From positions 958 through 64,957 of the forward strand of contig JAUVXE010000002.1 of the NCBI GenBank assembly GCA_030603745.1: a DNA stretch of 64,000 bases, in the 5' to 3' direction. Positions 14,197 through 60,190 of this stretch are shown piece by piece; position 1 is the stretch's first letter; each line of letters begins with the position of its first letter. The DNA comes from Coriobacteriia bacterium (GTDB lineage Bacteria > Actinomycetota > Coriobacteriia > Anaerosomatales > SLCP01). Under the pieces are notes generated by a model. The model had not been told where the DNA came from. It saw only the letters and a list, made by a program, of their open reading frames with translations, and did no database searches. The translations under genes were made by a program, and so were the position numbers.

Positions 14197-15165
14197 TCAC
14201 GCGAGCACGCCCGGGCCGCCCGCGTAGAGCAGCCCCACGTACGCGACGTATCCGACGAGGAAGAGCGCTCCGGCGACCCGTCCGATCCGTCCCCGCCACA
14301 GCAGCAGGGGCACGAGCAGCGCCGAGGAGGCGAGCATCACCCACACGTCGAACGACGCGATCCCCGCGCTCACCGGCAGCGGCTGCACGATCGCCGTGAT
14401 GCCGATGATCGAGAGCACGTTGAAGAGGTTGCTGCCGACCACGTTGCCCACCGCGACGTCGGCGTGTCCCCGCACCGCGGCCATCACGGAGGTGGCGAGC
14501 TCGGGCAGCGAGGTGCCGATCGCCACCAGCGTGAGGCCGATGACCGCCTCGGGCACTCCGAACGTCCGCGCAATCTCCTCGGCGCCGTTGACGAGCAGCC
14601 GTGAGCCCACCACGAGCGCGGCGAGCCCCACCGCGAGCTCGACGAACCCGAGCCAGAGCCGCTTCGTCACGCCGGCGAACTCATCGGCCTCGTGCTCGTG
14701 CAGCTCCGCCGAGGGCGCGTGACCGTCGGCCTCGGTCCAGTACGAGTACCAGACGTAGGCGACGAGCGCGCCCACCATGAGCGCGCCGTGCCACCTCTCC
14801 ACCACGCCGAAGAGGGAGAGCCCGGTGAGCAGCGCGATCGAGGCGAGCATCACCCAGGTGTCGCGGCGGACCTCGGCGGGCTTGACCGCGATGGGGAGGA
14901 TGAGGGCCGACGCGCCGAGGATGAGCAGCACGTTGGCGATGTTGCTGCCGACCACGTTGCCCATGGCGATGTCGACCTGGCCGCGCCCCGCCGCCTCGAG
15001 ACTCACGAGGAGCTCGGGTGCCGACGTGCAGAACGCGACGATCGTCATGCCGATGAGCAGCGGCGAGACCCCCATGCGGCGCGAGACCGTGACCGCGCCG
15101 CGCACGAGCCACTCGCCTCCCGCGAACAGCAGCACGAACCCTCCGAGGGCGAACAGATACATCAT
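14197..15165 (-). CDS. calcium/sodium antiporter (CaCA family, YrbG-like)
   Basis: Two alpha-repeat motifs (GNVVGSNIANVLLILG and GNVVGSNLFNVLSIIG) and about 10 TM segments. It is a paralog of 39662..40609. Confidence 0.9.
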   Translation of the reverse strand: MMYLFALGGFVLLFAGGEWLVRGAVTVSRRMGVSPLLIGMTIVAFCTSAPELLVSLEAAGRGQVDIAMGNVVGSNIANVLLILGASALILPIAVKPAEVRRDTWVMLASIALLTGLSLFGVVERWHGALMVGALVAYVWYSYWTEADGHAPSAELHEHEADEFAGVTKRLWLGFVELAVGLAALVVGSRLLVNGAEEIARTFGVPEAVIGLTLVAIGTSLPELATSVMAAVRGHADVAVGNVVGSNLFNVLSIIGITAIVQPLPVSAGIASFDVWVMLASSALLVPLLLWRGRIGRVAGALFLVGYVAYVGLLYAGGPGVLA

Positions 15166-39661: not shown

Positions 39662-40609
39662 TCAGGCGAACAGAAGCGTGAGATAGAGCCCGTAGCCGGC
39701 GAGAAGCCCGACGCCGGCTACGCGGCCGATCCGTCCGCGGTAGAGCGCGAGCGGGACCAGCACGATGGACACCGCGAGCATCACCCAGACGTCCGTTCCG
39801 GCTATCCGCTCCGACACTCCGACCGGCCGCACCAGCGCGGTCAGGCCGAGGATGCCGAGGACGTTGAAGATGTTGCTGCCCACCACGTTGCCGACGGCGA
39901 CGTCGGGATGCCGCCTGACCGCCGCGATCACGCTCGTGGCGAGCTCCGGCAGCGAGGTGCCCACCGCCACGAGGCTCAGGCCGATCACCGCCTCCGAGAC
40001 GCCGAACGTGCGCGCGATATCGCTCGCGCCGACGACGAGGAAGCGCGAGCCGACCACCAGGGCGGCGAGCCCCGCGGCCAGCAGCAGCACCGCCCTCCCC
40101 GCGGATCCGGCGGCGGAGGGCTCGGCGGCCTCGCGCTCGTGCAGCACCGCCGAGGGCGACGAGGGGTCGCGGGCCTCGGAGCGGTAGGAGAGCGCCACGT
40201 ACGCCGCCGTCGCGACGACGAACAGCGCGCCTGCGACCCGGCCGATCTCGCCGGCGAGCGCGAAGGGCACGAGCAACGCAGCCGAAGCGACCATGACCGC
40301 GAGGTCGCGCCGGAGCTCGGCGGGCGACAGGACGATGGGCGCGACGATGGCCGAGACGCCCAACACTCCGAGCACGTTGAAGATGTTGCTGCCCACCACG
40401 TTGCCGATCGCGATGTCGGGCCTGCCGTTGAGCGCCGCGCCGACGCTGACCACGAGCTCCGGCGCCGAGGTACACCAGGCCACGATCGTCATCCCCACGA
40501 GCAGCGGCGAGAGTCCGAGGCGGCGGGACAGGCCGACCGCGCCCCTGACGAGGAACTCACCGCCGCCGAAGAGCAGCGCCAACCCACCGAGTGCCACGAG
40601 GTACATCAT
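39662..40609 (-). CDS. calcium/sodium antiporter (CaCA family), second paralog
   Basis: Alpha-repeats GNVVGSNIFNVLGVLG and GNVVGSNIFNVLGILG. The N-terminus MMYLVALGGLALLFGGGEFLVRGAV is nearly identical to that of 14197..15165. Confidence 0.9.
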   Translation of the reverse strand: MMYLVALGGLALLFGGGEFLVRGAVGLSRRLGLSPLLVGMTIVAWCTSAPELVVSVGAALNGRPDIAIGNVVGSNIFNVLGVLGVSAIVAPIVLSPAELRRDLAVMVASAALLVPFALAGEIGRVAGALFVVATAAYVALSYRSEARDPSSPSAVLHEREAAEPSAAGSAGRAVLLLAAGLAALVVGSRFLVVGASDIARTFGVSEAVIGLSLVAVGTSLPELATSVIAAVRRHPDVAVGNVVGSNIFNVLGILGLTALVRPVGVSERIAGTDVWVMLAVSIVLVPLALYRGRIGRVAGVGLLAGYGLYLTLLFA

Positions 40610-48708: not shown

Positions 48709-49167
48709 ATGAACCGGGTCCGACCCCTGATCGTCTCCGTGGCCATGGCGGCCCTGGCGCTGGCGCTGCCGGCACCGGCCGCGATGGCCCACGGCGTCGA
48801 CCTCACCGCCGGGACGGTCGAGGGTGTGGAGGTCACCGCCGTCTTCGACGGGGGCGGCGGCCCGATGGCCGGCGCGCAGGTGACCGTCTTCGCTCCGGAC
48901 GACCCCGCCCGGCCGTGGATGACCGGCACCACGGACGAGGAGGGGCGCTTCTTCTTCGTGCCCGATGCGGCACTCCCCGGCACGTGGGACGTGCAGGTTC
49001 GGCAGGCGGGTCACGGCGGGATCGTCCGCGTCGAGGTCACCGCCGAGGGTGCCGAGGTCGCCGCTGATGCCGCCGGGCTCCCCGTCACGCAGAAGGCGCT
49101 GATGGCGCTCGCTGTCGCGTGGGGAGCGCTCGGCACCGCCCTGTACTTCCGAAGGCGGGCCGCCTGA
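48709..49167 (+). CDS. exported accessory protein with an Ig/transthyretin-like fold and a C-terminal TM anchor (NikL-like position)
   Basis: The signal peptide ends AMA, so the mature N-terminus would be HGV.... The motif GAQVTVFAPDD...TDEEGRFFF is like a carboxypeptidase-regulatory domain. There is one C-terminal TM helix. The stop overlaps the nikM start. Confidence 0.55.
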   Translation: MNRVRPLIVSVAMAALALALPAPAAMAHGVDLTAGTVEGVEVTAVFDGGGGPMAGAQVTVFAPDDPARPWMTGTTDEEGRFFFVPDAALPGTWDVQVRQAGHGGIVRVEVTAEGAEVAADAAGLPVTQKALMALAVAWGALGTALYFRRRAA

Positions 49168-50584: not shown

Positions 50585-51391
50585 GTGAACACGACCACCA
50601 CACATCCCGCCGGGGCGCCCAAGGCGATCTCTGCCGCTGGCCTCGGTTTCGGGTACCCGGGACGCGGGCCGGTGCTCGAGGGTGTCACCATCGAGGCGGC
50701 CGCGGCCGAGCGCGTCGGCGTGATCGGCCCGAACGGCGCGGGCAAGACGACCCTCTTCATGCTGCTCTGCGGGGTGCTCGCGCCCACGGAGGGGACGCTC
50801 GAGGTGTTCGGCGCTACCGTGGAGCCTGGCGCGTTCCGGCCCGAGATCGGCATGGTGTTCCACCACACGAACGACCAGCTGATCTGCCCGACCGTTCGCG
50901 AGGACATCGCGTTCGGGCCGCAGAACACCGGCCTGCTCGAGGAGGCCGTCTCCGCCCGGGTGCACGCCGCGGCGGCCGCCACCGGGATCGCCCACCTGCT
51001 CGACCGGACCCCGCATGAGCTCTCGAGCGGCGAGCAGCGGCTCGTCGCGATCACGGGGATCCTCGCGATGGAGCCGCGTCTGCTCATCCTCGACGAGCCC
51101 ACGTCCGACCTCGACCTGCGCTACCGGCGGCGGCTGATCCGGCTCATCGAGCGGATGGAGGGGCAGACCGTCATCGTCGCCTCACACGACCTCGAGTTCA
51201 TCCTCGAGACGTGCGGCCGGGTCCTGCTGCTCGATGCCGGTCGCATCCAGGCCGACGGCGCGCCGGCCGAGATCATGGCCGATGAGGGCCTCATGGCCGC
51301 CCACGGGCTCGAGGTCCCCCACTCGCTCGTGGCCACGTGGCACCGGCACCGGGGGTCGGGGGTCGACGAGCACGGGGACGCGGCGGGCTGA
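50585..51391 (+). CDS. nikO: CbiO/NikO-family ECF transporter ATPase
   Basis: Walker [10 protein letters not shown], signature LSSGEQRLV, Walker B LLILDEPTSDLD. GTG start. Confidence 0.9.
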   Translation: MNTTTTHPAGAPKAISAAGLGFGYPGRGPVLEGVTIEAAAAERVGVIGPNGAGKTTLFMLLCGVLAPTEGTLEVFGATVEPGAFRPEIGMVFHHTNDQLICPTVREDIAFGPQNTGLLEEAVSARVHAAAAATGIAHLLDRTPHELSSGEQRLVAITGILAMEPRLLILDEPTSDLDLRYRRRLIRLIERMEGQTVIVASHDLEFILETCGRVLLLDAGRIQADGAPAEIMADEGLMAAHGLEVPHSLVATWHRHRGSGVDEHGDAAG

Positions 51392-51425: not shown

Positions 51426-51845
51426 TCAGGTGATGTTCTCGCCCGTGGTCGTGGCCACGAACCGGCCATGCTTCACGCCCTTGGTCCCGATGAGCCCGCT
51501 CGCGATGCGCTCGATCTCCCGGATGTCACCACGCAACACCACGACCTCGAGACAGTTGTGTGCATCCAGGTGGATGTGGAGCGTCGAGACGATCTCGTGG
51601 TGATGGGAGTGCTGGTGCTCGGTCAGCTTGTCGGAGAGGTCACGCGTGTGGTGGTCGAACACCAGCGTGACGGTGCCGACCGCCTCGCCCTCGGCCTGCT
51701 CCCACTGCCGCTCGACGAGCGCGTTGCGCATCAGGTCTCGCACCGCCTCGGAACGGTTGATGTATCCGCGGTCGCGGATCAGATCGTCGAACCGTTCGAC
51801 GAGGCGCTCATCCGCCGAGACGCTGAACCTCACGACATCCGACAT
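51426..51845 (-). CDS. nikR: nickel-responsive regulator NikR
   Basis: N-terminal RHH ([20 protein letters not shown]...[14 protein letters not shown]) plus a C-terminal ACT-like metal-binding domain with the His cluster [25 protein letters not shown]. Confidence 0.9.
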
Positions 51846-57038: not shown

Positions 57039-57224
57039 CAGGCACCCTCCGTCCGTCCGGTCGTCGGCGCCCCCGACCGGGTGCTCCCGGCCGAGGGCGC
57101 CGCTCAGATGGTGTGTACCCCACGGGACCCCGGCACACCACGAACGACCGGGCCGGTTCGGGTATATCTCGTGGTGATGGCGGGTGCGACGCGGCGGAGG
57201 CGAGATGTCTGAAGGCGGCACGAC

Positions 57225-58565
57225 ATGCGACTGATCATCCGTGGGGTGTTCTGGTTCGGCCTCTACCTCACGATCATCCTCTTCCCGCTGATCGCCGGAG
57301 TCGTGTTCTTCGACGCCTCGCAGGCCGCCAGTCCGTTCATCTACCTCGCCATCGCGACCGGCTACATCGCCCTCGCGCTGATGGCCACCGAACTCGCGCT
57401 CGTCTCGCGGTTCGCCGGCGTGGCAGGCGCGTTCGGGCTCGACTCGCTGTTGCAGTTCCACCGGCAGATCGGCATCGCCTCCATGGCCTTCGCAGCGGCG
57501 CATCCGCTGCTTCTCGTAGCCGACCGCGCCTACACCGTGCGCCTCCTCGTCCCGAACGCGCAGCTCCCCTGGCCGGTGAGCGCAGGCGGGCTCGCCTTCC
57601 TGCTGGCCGTGCTGGTCGTGGGCCTGTCGGTCTACCGTCGCCACCTCCGCCTCTCGTACGGCATCTGGCACCTCACGCATGGGCTCTTCTCGATCGCGCT
57701 CATCGGATTCGCTGCGGCGCACGTGCTCGGGATCGGCCGCTTCGCCGCCCTACCGGTCATGCGTGCCCTCTGGATCGTCTACCTCGTCTTCTTTGTGGGC
57801 ATGTTCCTGCGCTACCGCCTCCTGCGTCCACTCTCCCTCATGCGCCATCCCTGGGAGGTCGCGGAGAACCGCGTCGAGCACGGCAACTCACACACGCTTG
57901 TGTTGCGCCCCGTGGGCCATGACGGGTTCCGGTTCGAGCCCGGCCAGTTCGCGTGGATCGGCTTCGGCCGCTCCCCCTTCGCCACCGATCAGCATCCGAT
58001 CTCGTTCTCCTCCAACGGTGACATCCCCAACCACGACGGGGCCATCGCATTCACGATCAAGCAGCTCGGGGACTGGTCGTCCCAGGTCGTGCCGACCGTC
58101 GAGCCGGGCACCAGGGCGTGGGTCGACGGCCCCCACGGCGTGTTCACCATCGACCGCGAGGAGGGCGCCGGGTACGTCCTCATCGGTGGGGGCGTGGGCA
58201 TCACGCCGCTCTACTCGATGCTGCAGGCACTCGAGACGAGGGGCGACCCTCGGCCGGTCTACCTGTTCCATGCCGCCAACGACTACGGCGACCTCACGTT
58301 CCGTGAGGAACTCGCCGAGATGGACGCGCGCATGGAGACCTTGACCGTGGTCACCGTCCTCCTGCGTCCGCACGAGGGGTGGGAGGGCGAGTCAGGGTTC
58401 GTGACCGAGGAGATCATCACCCGCTACCTGCCGCCGACGCTCTACCGCCGTTTCCAGTATTTCATCTGCGGGCCCGGACCGCTGATGGACGCCATGGAAC
58501 GGGTCCTGCCCGCGATCGGAGTGCCCGCCGACCGCGTCCACACCGAGCGCTTCGACATGGTGTAG
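57225..58565 (+). CDS. NOX/ferric-reductase-like flavocytochrome b (ferric_reduct TM domain + FAD + NAD(P)H domains)
   Basis: 6 TM helices with two His pairs spaced 14 residues apart (FHRQIG...AAAH and THGLFS...AAAH). FAD motif HPISFSS, NAD(P)H motif GGGVGITP, then ICGPGPLMDAM, ending ERFDMV. Confidence 0.85.
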   Translation: MRLIIRGVFWFGLYLTIILFPLIAGVVFFDASQAASPFIYLAIATGYIALALMATELALVSRFAGVAGAFGLDSLLQFHRQIGIASMAFAAAHPLLLVADRAYTVRLLVPNAQLPWPVSAGGLAFLLAVLVVGLSVYRRHLRLSYGIWHLTHGLFSIALIGFAAAHVLGIGRFAALPVMRALWIVYLVFFVGMFLRYRLLRPLSLMRHPWEVAENRVEHGNSHTLVLRPVGHDGFRFEPGQFAWIGFGRSPFATDQHPISFSSNGDIPNHDGAIAFTIKQLGDWSSQVVPTVEPGTRAWVDGPHGVFTIDREEGAGYVLIGGGVGITPLYSMLQALETRGDPRPVYLFHAANDYGDLTFREELAEMDARMETLTVVTVLLRPHEGWEGESGFVTEEIITRYLPPTLYRRFQYFICGPGPLMDAMERVLPAIGVPADRVHTERFDMV

Positions 58566-58574
58566 GGAGGTGTC

Positions 58575-59177
58575 GTGAACCACCGGATCGTATCGACCGT
58601 GGTCGTCATCAACGTGGCGCTCTTCGTGGTCGCCGCGGGGATGTTCGCGTGGGCGGCGGCGGTCGTCGCACCGCTCGAGCCCGGGGCGGGGTACGCACCC
58701 GACGACCCGCACCCTCCCGCACGGCGAACCGAACCCTGCCTCGACTGCCACACCGTCGCGGCCGACACGATCCCGGTCACCCACCGCCACTACCAGGTCG
58801 ATGCCTGCTCGAGATGCCATCGGCCCGCCGTTCGCGTGCTCGTGCCGCACTCCGTCGCGATGGGCGAGGCGCGATGCCCGCTCTGCCACGGGGAGCCCGC
58901 CCGCGACCTCGGCATGCCCGAGAGCCACCTGCGCTTCGAGACGGGGGCGTGCCTGCTCTGTCATCCGGTGGACACACGCTTCTACGACCGGCAGCCCGGT
59001 CCGGCGGGCCTGTCGCTCAGCCCTGCCGGGTCGATCGCGCACCCGATCGGCGGCGTCTTCGCGGACTGCGACGCGTGTCACCACGTGCCCGCGAGAAGTA
59101 CGCTCCCGGAGAACCACCGCGACTTCGCACCGCAGACCTGCATGGACTGCCACAAGCCGAGGCCTGCCGAGGAGTAG
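58575..59177 (+). CDS. membrane-anchored hexaheme c-type cytochrome (three doubled-CXXCH modules)
   Basis: GTG 58575 lies 4 nt after GGGAGG and 10 nt after the upstream stop. An N-terminal TM anchor is followed by six CXXCH motifs: CLDCH, CSRCH, CPLCH, CLLCH, CDACH, CMDCH. Confidence 0.85.
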   Translation: MNHRIVSTVVVINVALFVVAAGMFAWAAAVVAPLEPGAGYAPDDPHPPARRTEPCLDCHTVAADTIPVTHRHYQVDACSRCHRPAVRVLVPHSVAMGEARCPLCHGEPARDLGMPESHLRFETGACLLCHPVDTRFYDRQPGPAGLSLSPAGSIAHPIGGVFADCDACHHVPARSTLPENHRDFAPQTCMDCHKPRPAEE

Positions 59178-59854: not shown

Positions 59855-60190
59855 TCAGTCGATCAGGCCGTGCCCCTCCTCGGCGTAGGCACCGGTGTCG
59901 GCGCGGTACGCCGGCTCGGTGAAGGGCAGGAACTCAGGGACAAGGCCGTGCCCCTCCTCGGCGTAGGCACCGGTGTCGGCGCGGTACGCCGGCTCGGTGA
60001 AGGGCAGGAACTCGGCCACGAGTCCGTGACCTTCCTCGGCGTACGACCCCGTGTCGCCGCGATACCCGTCTACCGCCGCCGCGACCACGGGGACGAGCGC
60101 GAGGATGAGGAGGGCCGTGAGTACCACCGCCACTCCTGCGAGCAGGCGTGAAGCCGTTCGATCGATCGATGCGTTCAACATCGTCTTCAC
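59855..60190 (-). CDS. signal-anchored protein with tandem 26-aa repeats YR(A/G)DTG(A/S)YAEEGHGLV(P/A)EFLPFTEPA
   Basis: 111 aa with an N-terminal hydrophobic segment, then two full units and one truncated unit that ends the protein (...EEGHGLID). Confidence 0.65.
   Translation of the reverse strand: MKTMLNASIDRTASRLLAGVAVVLTALLILALVPVVAAAVDGYRGDTGSYAEEGHGLVAEFLPFTEPAYRADTGAYAEEGHGLVPEFLPFTEPAYRADTGAYAEEGHGLID
59865..60070. repeat. 78-bp tandem repeat, about 2.6 copies; two copies share a 71-bp perfect match
   Basis: 59865..59935 and 59943..60013 are identical. A diverged third copy starts near 60021. The repeat lies entirely inside CDS 59855..60190. Confidence 0.9.

Follow-up and report, generated by a model that had tools for sequence, protein, structure and literature searches.

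A ferric reductase-like flavocytochrome b conserved beside a membrane-anchored hexahaem cytochrome c as a candidate unit for electron export from NAD(P)H

We analysed a 64,000-nucleotide (nt) stretch of the genome of a Coriobacteriia bacterium (GenBank assembly GCA_030603745.1, contig JAUVXE010000002.1, positions 958 to 64,957; hereafter the window, in whose coordinates positions are given), and within it two adjacent genes which, with the features described for them below, lie on the forward strand. Gene 1 (57225..58565) encodes a flavocytochrome b of 446 amino acids (aa) in which a ferric-reductase transmembrane (TM) domain is fused to an FNR-type FAD/NAD(P)H dehydrogenase domain, and gene 2 (58575..59177), which has a GTG start, encodes a membrane-anchored hexahaem c-type cytochrome of 200 aa. 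This architecture had been described by a model that read the letters of the window with no database search (the sequence-only reading); both open reading frames (ORFs) lie where it had placed them, and the His pairs, the FAD and NAD(P)H motifs, the six helices, the anchor and the six CXXCH motifs were all recovered here. At third codon positions, gene 1 has a G+C content of 0.91 and gene 2 one of 0.89, against a G+C content of 70% for the window, which fits both being real genes.

Searches with Pfam placed Ferric_reduct (PF01794) on residues 45-162 of gene 1 (E 2.6e-11, 44.1 bits against a curated cut-off of 28) and NAD_binding_1 (PF00175) on residues 319-425 (E 1.4e-21), with FAD_binding_8 and NAD_binding_6 scoring slightly under their cut-offs. 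Hydropathy and the positive-inside rule delimit a six-helix TM domain at residues 1-205 (57225..57839), the helices of which are present in the AlphaFold2 model, and assign both the N terminus and the dehydrogenase domain to the cytoplasm. Two His pairs, H79/H93 and H152/H166, each with a spacing of 14 (13 residues between), are invariant among 52 homologues. Because of the predicted topology, and by analogy with the bacterial NOX-like enzyme SpNOX, we propose that H79 and H152 would ligate the inner b haem and H93 and H166 the outer b haem. The FAD motif HPISFSS at residues 257-263 (57993..58013) contains invariant H257, P258, S262 and S263, and the NAD(P)H motif GGGVGITP at residues 321-328 (58185..58208) contains G322, G323, G325 and P328, which are invariant among the 52 homologues, as are the CGP at residues 415-417 and F443, a Phe near the C terminus. 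The AlphaFold2 model of gene 1, with a predicted local distance difference test (pLDDT) score of 82.6, found its top structural match in full-length SpNOX (PDB 8qta, 8qt6 and 8qq7; TM-score 0.70/0.78), followed by DUOX1 and NOX2. By sequence, the dehydrogenase half is closer to classical FNR-type reductases (methane monooxygenase reductase, NqrF and cytochrome b5 reductase), and the matches of the gene 1 profile in the PDB include both FNR-type reductases and SpNOX.

Gene 1 has the marks of the FRD (ferric reductase domain) superfamily, namely PF01794, the four canonical haem-ligating His residues on TM3 and TM5, and fused FAD and NAD(P)H domains. It is a bacterial long form of that superfamily, for which long forms with all four His residues have been described (Zhang 2013), rather than a strict NOX. 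In particular, the HPISF of gene 1 does not pass the NOX FAD-motif filter H[PSA]F[TS][LIMV] (Hajjar 2017, PMC5676040), since Ile replaces Phe and Phe replaces [LIMV]. Moreover, the His four residues past the second haem ligand of TM3 that sets NOX apart from FRE (NOX2 His-119; Zhang 2013) is in gene 1 a Leu, L97, which is invariant among the 52 homologues. One strict-NOX test does give a positive result, with GVGITP at residues 323-328 and 13 residues between the members of both His pairs. Because the FAD motif and the His-119 signature both fail, gene 1 is not a strict NOX, and the NOX label given to it by the sequence-only reading was imprecise. Two further identities were considered and set aside. 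The presence of all four His residues, the fused dehydrogenase and the lack of a nearby MsrP gene exclude MsrQ/YedZ; and a flavinylated MsrQ-like system was rejected on finding no ApbE or FMN_bind gene among the Pfam-scanned neighbours in the window or those of partner-less homologues, and none conserved across 37 loci that were compared.

The protein encoded by gene 2 consists of one N-terminal helix, a Pro-rich linker and then six CXXCH motifs, which start at residues 55, 78, 101, 126, 165 and 189. The TM anchor occupies residues 2-31 (58578..58667), is modelled as a helix with a pLDDT of 91-98, and bears the juxtamembrane motif NHRIVS. Hydropathy and the positive-inside rule give an N-in, C-out orientation, with the haem domain beyond the membrane, in keeping with the outward-facing cytochrome domain on which the sequence-only reading had relied. 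Homologues of gene 2 fall into 56 clusters, every one of about 200 aa; all six CXXCH motifs are kept in homologues as low as 40% identity, and in 28 homologues they are conserved together with six extra His residues (46, 70, 92, 118, 156 and 181). These six His residues appear, from the sequences, to suffice for six bis-His haems. With its CXXCH motifs, its N-in anchor and a distal His for each haem, gene 2 is thus a predicted multihaem c-type cytochrome. The motifs are unlikely to be a product of composition, as at least two CXXCH occurred in just 9 of 20,000 residue shuffles of gene 2, and a six-frame translation of the whole window contains no CXXCH outside the six of this gene.

The haem-binding part of gene 2 is made up of three copies of a dihaem module, H-x8-CxxCH-x8-10-PxxH-x7-CxxCH, each in register with the single module of shorter relatives. 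On the evidence of invariant columns and the in-register alignment, module 1 covers residues 45-82 (PH46, C55xxCH59, PxTH70 and C78xxCH82; 58707..58820), module 2 residues 91-130 (PH92, C101xxCH105, PxxH118 and C126xxCH130; 58845..58964) and module 3 residues 155-193 (H156, C165xxCH169, PxxH181 and C189xxCH193; 59037..59153). No curated family claims gene 2, which matches the models for c7, paired-CXXCH, DmsE and NrfH only marginally or below threshold. In Pfam, Cytochrome_C7 and Paired_CXXCH_1 match weakly; PF14522 matches only residues 51-105 (26.3 bits against a cut-off of 24.8) and PF14537 stays under its cut-off. The closest solved structures to the gene 2 profile in a PDB sequence search are c7, small tetrahaem (STC) and c3 cytochromes, with marginal E values of 0.006-0.06.

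Gene 1 ends with TAG (58563-58565) and the GTG of gene 2 is at 58575, leaving 9 nt between them. The sequence-only reading, which was right that gene 2 has its own GGGAGG just past gene 1, counted one nucleotide too many (10 nt); this Shine-Dalgarno sequence (58565..58570) takes in the final base of the gene 1 stop. The interval from that stop to the start of gene 2 is 9-17 nt in most orthologous loci, and the outliers tabulated range from small overlaps to +164 (L008). The two genes share a reading frame, with TAG and 9 nt between them, and the C terminus and N terminus that meet at the junction are both cytoplasmic; a read-through fusion would have a consistent topology. Stop-codon read-through was nevertheless rejected as a conserved feature, because the spacings at other loci (9, 10, 11, 13, 14, 16 and 17 nt) are often out of frame, and it is probably not selected for. 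Upstream of gene 1, a weak candidate for a −10-like box (GGTATATC, 57161..57168) lies about 57 nt 5′ of the start codon, and a GGTATACT-like box recurs about 60-70 nt 5′ of the start of gene 1 in many orthologous loci (L005-L023); a ATCGCGAGGTAG leader is found immediately 5′ of that start in many orthologous loci. A scan for sigma-70 consensus promoters detected none at the 57161-57168 box, the scan for promoters and terminators yielded nothing useful, and Rfam gave no match around the gene pair.

Gene 1 has more than 1,700 homologues, the nearest of which, other than itself, is 84% identical, and the nearest relatives of the window are uncultured Coriobacteriia and Anaerosomatales genomes. 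To follow the pair across genomes, a profile of gene 1 was run against a single genome for each GTDB species, and 80 loci were retained. At 58% identity to gene 1 or above, every locus has a same-strand ORF with an MNHRIVS anchor, nearly always a few nucleotides past the stop codon, apart from just two loci whose contigs end inside or at gene 1. The intact anchored cytochromes in this range carry 5-7 CXXCH motifs; two others are frameshifted (L030 and L055) and two are truncated by the contig. Every homologue of at least 50% identity with intact downstream DNA is followed by an xHRIVS cytochrome on the same strand (frameshifted in L055, N-masked in L050). Between 50% and 53% identity, the same anchor occurs with two haems in Holophagales and other Acidobacteriota and with one haem, on a protein of 56-59 aa, in Anaeromyxobacter-like genomes, and all six haems are kept in an Anaerolineae locus (L038). 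Among loci under 50% identity, some 40% encode a monohaem cytochrome c, which is an anchored protein of about 110-130 aa or a soluble class-I-like one, and the others have none. When the searches started from gene 2, gene 1 was found directly upstream wherever upstream DNA exists (L001-L004, and seven of seven metagenome loci). Fourteen gene 1 and gene 2 matches, plus the window's own contig, share the same longest-contig value, which suggests that such matches are co-located.

Neighbour clustering across the 37 loci identified gene 1 and gene 2 as the only conserved genes, the next family being present in 10 loci at varied positions. In four phyla, and at identities between 84% and 50%, the two remain tightly adjacent as all their other neighbours vary. 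Because both genes are conserved as neighbours and their flanks differ, the pair is a self-contained module that has been retained together as its surroundings changed; the sequence-only reading had made its pairing depend on just such conserved adjacency. In public databases the proteins bear names such as 'ferredoxin reductase family protein', 'predicted ferric reductase', 'oxidoreductase' and 'hypothetical protein', with isolated JGI labels such as 'cytochrome c553'. In four Anaeromyxobacter-like loci (L039, L041, L047 and L052), a conserved ORF of 79 aa follows the 56-59 aa monohaem partner about 210 nt past gene 1 (7541-7780 in L041). Its N-terminal paired CxxC motifs are zinc-ribbon-like and its C terminus has a hydrophobic segment, and it may be a third component in this clade.

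In the anchor of gene 2, H3 and F24 occur in 100% of 74 family members, and R4, I5, V6, V10, F17 and A20 in about 85-92% of them; I13 is conserved less (64%) yet holds the i, i+3/4 spacing along the whole helix. Because it is one helix face that is conserved, these sequences suggest that the anchor packs against gene 1 and is not a cleaved signal peptide. An exhaustive profile search detected the anchor on proteins with 2, 4, 6 and 8 CXXCH motifs, and altogether it carries 1, 2, 4, 6, 7 or 8 motifs, built from repeats of one dihaem module; this module also occurs by itself in multihaem cytochromes of very large size. Within this sample, Actinomycetota and Chloroflexota, whose partners have 6-7 motifs, are the sole phyla in which partners of four or more haems are found, and those of one or two haems belong to the diderm phyla Acidobacteriota and Myxococcota. 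It is suggestive that haem number tracks envelope type, although envelope type is confounded here with phylogeny; the shorter versions in diderm phyla mean, in any case, that the system is not restricted to monoderm cells, in which the sequence-only reading had set it. The tetrahaem (P0218) and octahaem (P0181) variants are on contigs that end at or near the gene. In P0218 (JGI 3300047160), where the contig ends upstream, the tetrahaem anchored family member is followed by Rieske and cytochrome b genes, and the anchored cytochrome family might serve a bc-type complex in some lineages.

Given the architecture, topology, cofactor ligands, obligate pairing and conserved anchor face obtained by computation, we consider it probable that the two genes encode a single transmembrane electron-export unit that would take electrons from NAD(P)H to beyond the membrane independently of quinone. 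Gene 1 would transfer hydride from cytoplasmic NAD(P)H to its FAD, from which single electrons would pass to the inner b haem (H79/H152) and on to the outer b haem (H93/H166). The outer b haem would then reduce the first c haem of gene 2, whose TM helix would tether it next to gene 1 with the haem domain on the outer face, and electrons would continue along the six bis-His c haems of the three tandem dihaem modules. Beyond the membrane, gene 2 would hand them to acceptors that, in this likely member of Anaerosomatales, are probably other wall or surface multihaem cytochromes and, lastly, Fe(III), sulfur compounds or humics. We infer from these features that the two proteins touch, that flow is outward and which acceptor comes last. 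The NOX reaction is electrogenic and dissipates the membrane potential. By this analogy, the route would be electrogenic too and would conserve no energy; it would thus serve to vent electrons and so regenerate NAD(P)+, rather than as a coupling site.

That the outer b haem hands electrons to a multihaem cytochrome on the outer face, as the sequence-only reading had suggested, now has strong comparative backing from the obligate neighbours, the anchor face and the ability of SpNOX to reduce cytochrome c. The outer haem of SpNOX is solvent-exposed, its anaerobic reduction of cytochrome c proceeds at 124.7 per min versus 48 per min for O2, and its authors propose an unidentified protein acceptor (PMC11564096). 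In isolates of Anaerosomatales the wall is Gram-positive and 17-18 multihaem cytochromes are present, together with genes for cytochrome c biogenesis, a capacity on which the sequence-only reading had made its proposal depend; respiratory quinones were not detected in them, one is an obligate Fe(III) reducer, and the paper that describes them makes no mention of this gene pair (PMC9686372). A quinone-independent entry into a haem network would fit such a physiology.

Several observations weigh against this reading. A chain of six haems reaches no further than a few nanometres, less than the depth of a Gram-positive wall; alone it is unlikely to cross the wall, and the compact two-protein conduit to extracellular acceptors that the sequence-only reading envisaged is therefore too strong a description. 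The AlphaFold2 model of gene 2 is poor (pLDDT 60, predicted TM-score 0.29), is confident solely in the anchor helix and was not of a quality to support a fold search. Neither of the two cultured Anaerosomatales species (Anaerosoma tenue and Parvivirga hydrogeniphila) appears in the set of 80 loci, and they may lack the pair. No cytochrome c maturation genes were found among the approximately 24 annotated ORFs of the window, the rest of the genome not having been searched. No redox-sensing or iron-sensing operator was found upstream, and no Rex-type operator in 36 loci. Finally, other multihaem genes lie nearby in just two of the 37 loci, so that the context does not indicate the acceptor, and nothing points to Hg(II), which the sequence-only reading had thought conceivable, or to any other specific metal.

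In one Coriobacteriia locus (L026, 8798-13230, minus strand), two multihaem proteins are encoded 1-5 kb downstream of the pair; one, 1,037 aa long, combines fibronectin-III domains with ten CXXCH motifs, and the other, of 475 aa, has six such motifs. An ORF with ten CXXCH motifs lies at the edge of another locus (L019, 12447-13295, minus strand). These proteins are possible downstream wall or surface acceptors.

The same electron path could instead serve iron assimilation, with the cytochrome reducing Fe(III) chelates at the surface for uptake in the manner of FRE/FRO enzymes. The 13/13 spacing between the paired His residues of gene 1 is typical of FRE enzymes, and the NOX His-119 signature is missing. 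Iron assimilation has, in addition, been proposed for some MsrQ-like systems beside VIT1 (Meheust et al., PMC8238504). However, the Pfam-annotated neighbours in the window include no iron transporter, siderophore or iron-regulator gene, no neighbouring family beyond the pair is present in more than 10 of the 37 loci, and SpNOX shows negligible activity as a ferric reductase (PMC11564096). A wire of two to eight haems also seems excessive for a soluble chelate, and we regard an assimilatory role as unlikely. About equally unlikely, in our estimation, is a protective role outside the cytoplasm, in which electrons from NAD(P)H would keep wall-side cytochromes or enzymes reduced, or would detoxify O2, H2O2 or oxidised proteins, much as MsrQ and MsrP do. 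The partner encoded downstream in Acidobacteria is soluble, a monohaem cytochrome c resembling class I, and a kind of protein that donates electrons to peroxidases and oxidases, and the strictly anaerobic host lineage makes a defence against O2 plausible. Furthermore, MsrPQ offers a characterised precedent of an FRD protein that feeds a periplasmic repair enzyme (PMC8238504, PMC11564096). Set against this, the clustering of the 37 loci, with Pfam run on a subset of the neighbours, turned up no adjacent peroxidase, MsrP or oxidase gene, and six apparently bis-His haems favour electron transfer over catalysis.

Two other explanations would do away with the proposed route or turn it round. If the proteins worked independently, gene 2 would be a quinol dehydrogenase resembling NrfH or CymA, or a subunit of another complex, and its adjacency to gene 1 would reflect co-regulation only. 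An N-terminal anchor followed by multiple haems is indeed NapC/NrfH-like, NCBIfam returns a weak NrfH match, and the tetrahaem family member 5′ of Rieske and cytochrome b genes, whose own upstream region is cut off by the contig, could be taken the same way. However, the NrfH model (TIGR03153) scores 22.3 bits against a cut-off of 134.2 and PF03264, the NapC/NirT/NrfH family, does not match at all; the two genes have stayed adjacent over the whole identity range and all four phyla while their other neighbours changed; and quinones were not detected in cultured Anaerosomatales (PMC9686372). We therefore think independent function quite improbable. Least probable of all, and by our estimate very much so, is a reverse flow in which an external donor would feed electrons in at the cytochrome for the reduction of NAD(P)+. 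A haem chain could conduct both ways, but the pair has no energy-coupling subunit, the reduction of NAD(P)+ at −320 mV by way of bis-His haems would be uphill, and electrons moving inward would oppose the inside-negative potential.

The pair is thus best read as an FRD-family system that exports electrons across the membrane and has its own dedicated haem wire, the length of which is modular. A broader proposal, whose chances we place somewhat below even, is that it is the first recognised example of widespread quinone-independent transmembrane NAD(P)H:cytochrome c oxidoreductases, in which the cytochrome would be the physiological acceptor for bacterial NOX homologues and the anchor would dock a wire that grows in dihaem steps, with one or two haems in diderm and six to eight in monoderm cells; in Anaerosomatales, in whose cultured isolates quinones were not detected, such a pair could be the main exit for cytoplasmic electrons to extracellular Fe(III) or sulfur acceptors. 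For bacterial NOX-like enzymes, the physiological role and the acceptor are acknowledged gaps, and a cytochrome encoded 9 nt downstream is a concrete candidate for the acceptor, testable by cloning just two genes. The known entry points of extracellular electron transfer chains oxidise quinol, and one that led straight from NAD(P)H to haem c would be of another kind and highly compact; it could explain electron export in the Gram-positive Anaerosomatales, in which respiratory quinones were not detected. A two-gene module of this kind would be useful for engineering electroactive cells, and the stepwise haem number on a constant anchor provides a natural experiment on wire length versus envelope type.

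Elsewhere in the window, the sequence-only reading had noted a wealth of metal genes, which is weakly borne out. A NikR gene (51426-51845, minus strand) adjoins genes for an ABC ATPase (50585-51391) and a CarboxypepD_reg-like protein (48709-49167); together these are probably a nickel/cobalt uptake cluster, which is the main ground for that remark and has no evident link to the pair. The ORFs at 14197-15165 and 39662-40609 (minus strand) have near-identical N termini (MMYLFALGG and MMYLVALGG) and are probably paralogues, the second belonging to the Na/Ca exchanger family (PF01699). All else that was checked is housekeeping. An MsrA gene of the cytoplasmic type (PF01625; 61426-62061, minus strand) lies 2.2 kb downstream of the pair. 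It is not a conserved neighbour and its proximity is probably coincidental, the known FRD partner being MsrP and not MsrA. Between the two, on the minus strand (59855-60190), an ORF of 111 aa encodes an N-terminal hydrophobic segment and a repeat some 26 aa long (YRADTGAYAEEGHGLVPEFLPFTEPA) in three tandem copies; Pfam returned nothing for this ORF, and its place beside the pair is not conserved in other genomes.

Full-text searches of the literature turned up no account of a c-type cytochrome that is paired with an FRD or NOX-like enzyme, in agreement with the sequence-only reading, which knew of no characterised pair of NOX and multihaem cytochrome. The closest structural counterpart of gene 1 is SpNOX (PDB 8qq7, 8qt6 and 8qta), which likewise combines in one polypeptide six TM helices, two b haems held by four His residues and a C-terminal FAD/NAD(P)H domain, and which shares its short extracellular loops and an invariant Phe near the C terminus (F443 in gene 1, F397 in SpNOX). 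The two are only 15-16% identical, and the paired His residues are separated by 13 and 12 residues in SpNOX, as opposed to 13 and 13 in gene 1. Moreover, whereas a protein partner of SpNOX has only been proposed by its authors, gene 1 has a dedicated c-type cytochrome encoded 9 nt downstream.

MsrPQ (YedYZ) resembles the pair in that a membrane haem protein of the FRD family feeds a dedicated redox partner on the outer face. Unlike gene 1, however, MsrQ has no fused dehydrogenase, is fed by quinol or by the flavin reductase Fre, and has an Arg for the first canonical His; and its partner MsrP is a molybdoenzyme, whereas that of gene 1 is a cytochrome c. The MsrQ-like systems of Meheust et al. 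2021 (PMC8238504) also resemble the pair. They contain PF01794, in most cases followed by PF00175 at the C terminus, and are common in Actinobacteria; their predicted task is to carry electrons from NAD(P)H in the cytosol to a redox protein outside it. That protein is an FMN-binding protein flavinylated by ApbE, in contrast to the haem c wire that partners gene 1. On the side of gene 2, NapC, NirT, NrfH and CymA are also anchored multihaem cytochromes c that feed periplasmic or wall-side haem networks, but they oxidise quinol and conserve or use the quinone pool, whereas gene 2 is apparently fed by a flavocytochrome b that oxidises NAD(P)H. The c7 (PpcA), STC/CctA and c3 cytochromes have bis-His haems, as predicted for gene 2, and doubled CXXCH motifs; unlike these soluble proteins of three or four haems, gene 2 is anchored in the membrane and built from three dihaem modules.

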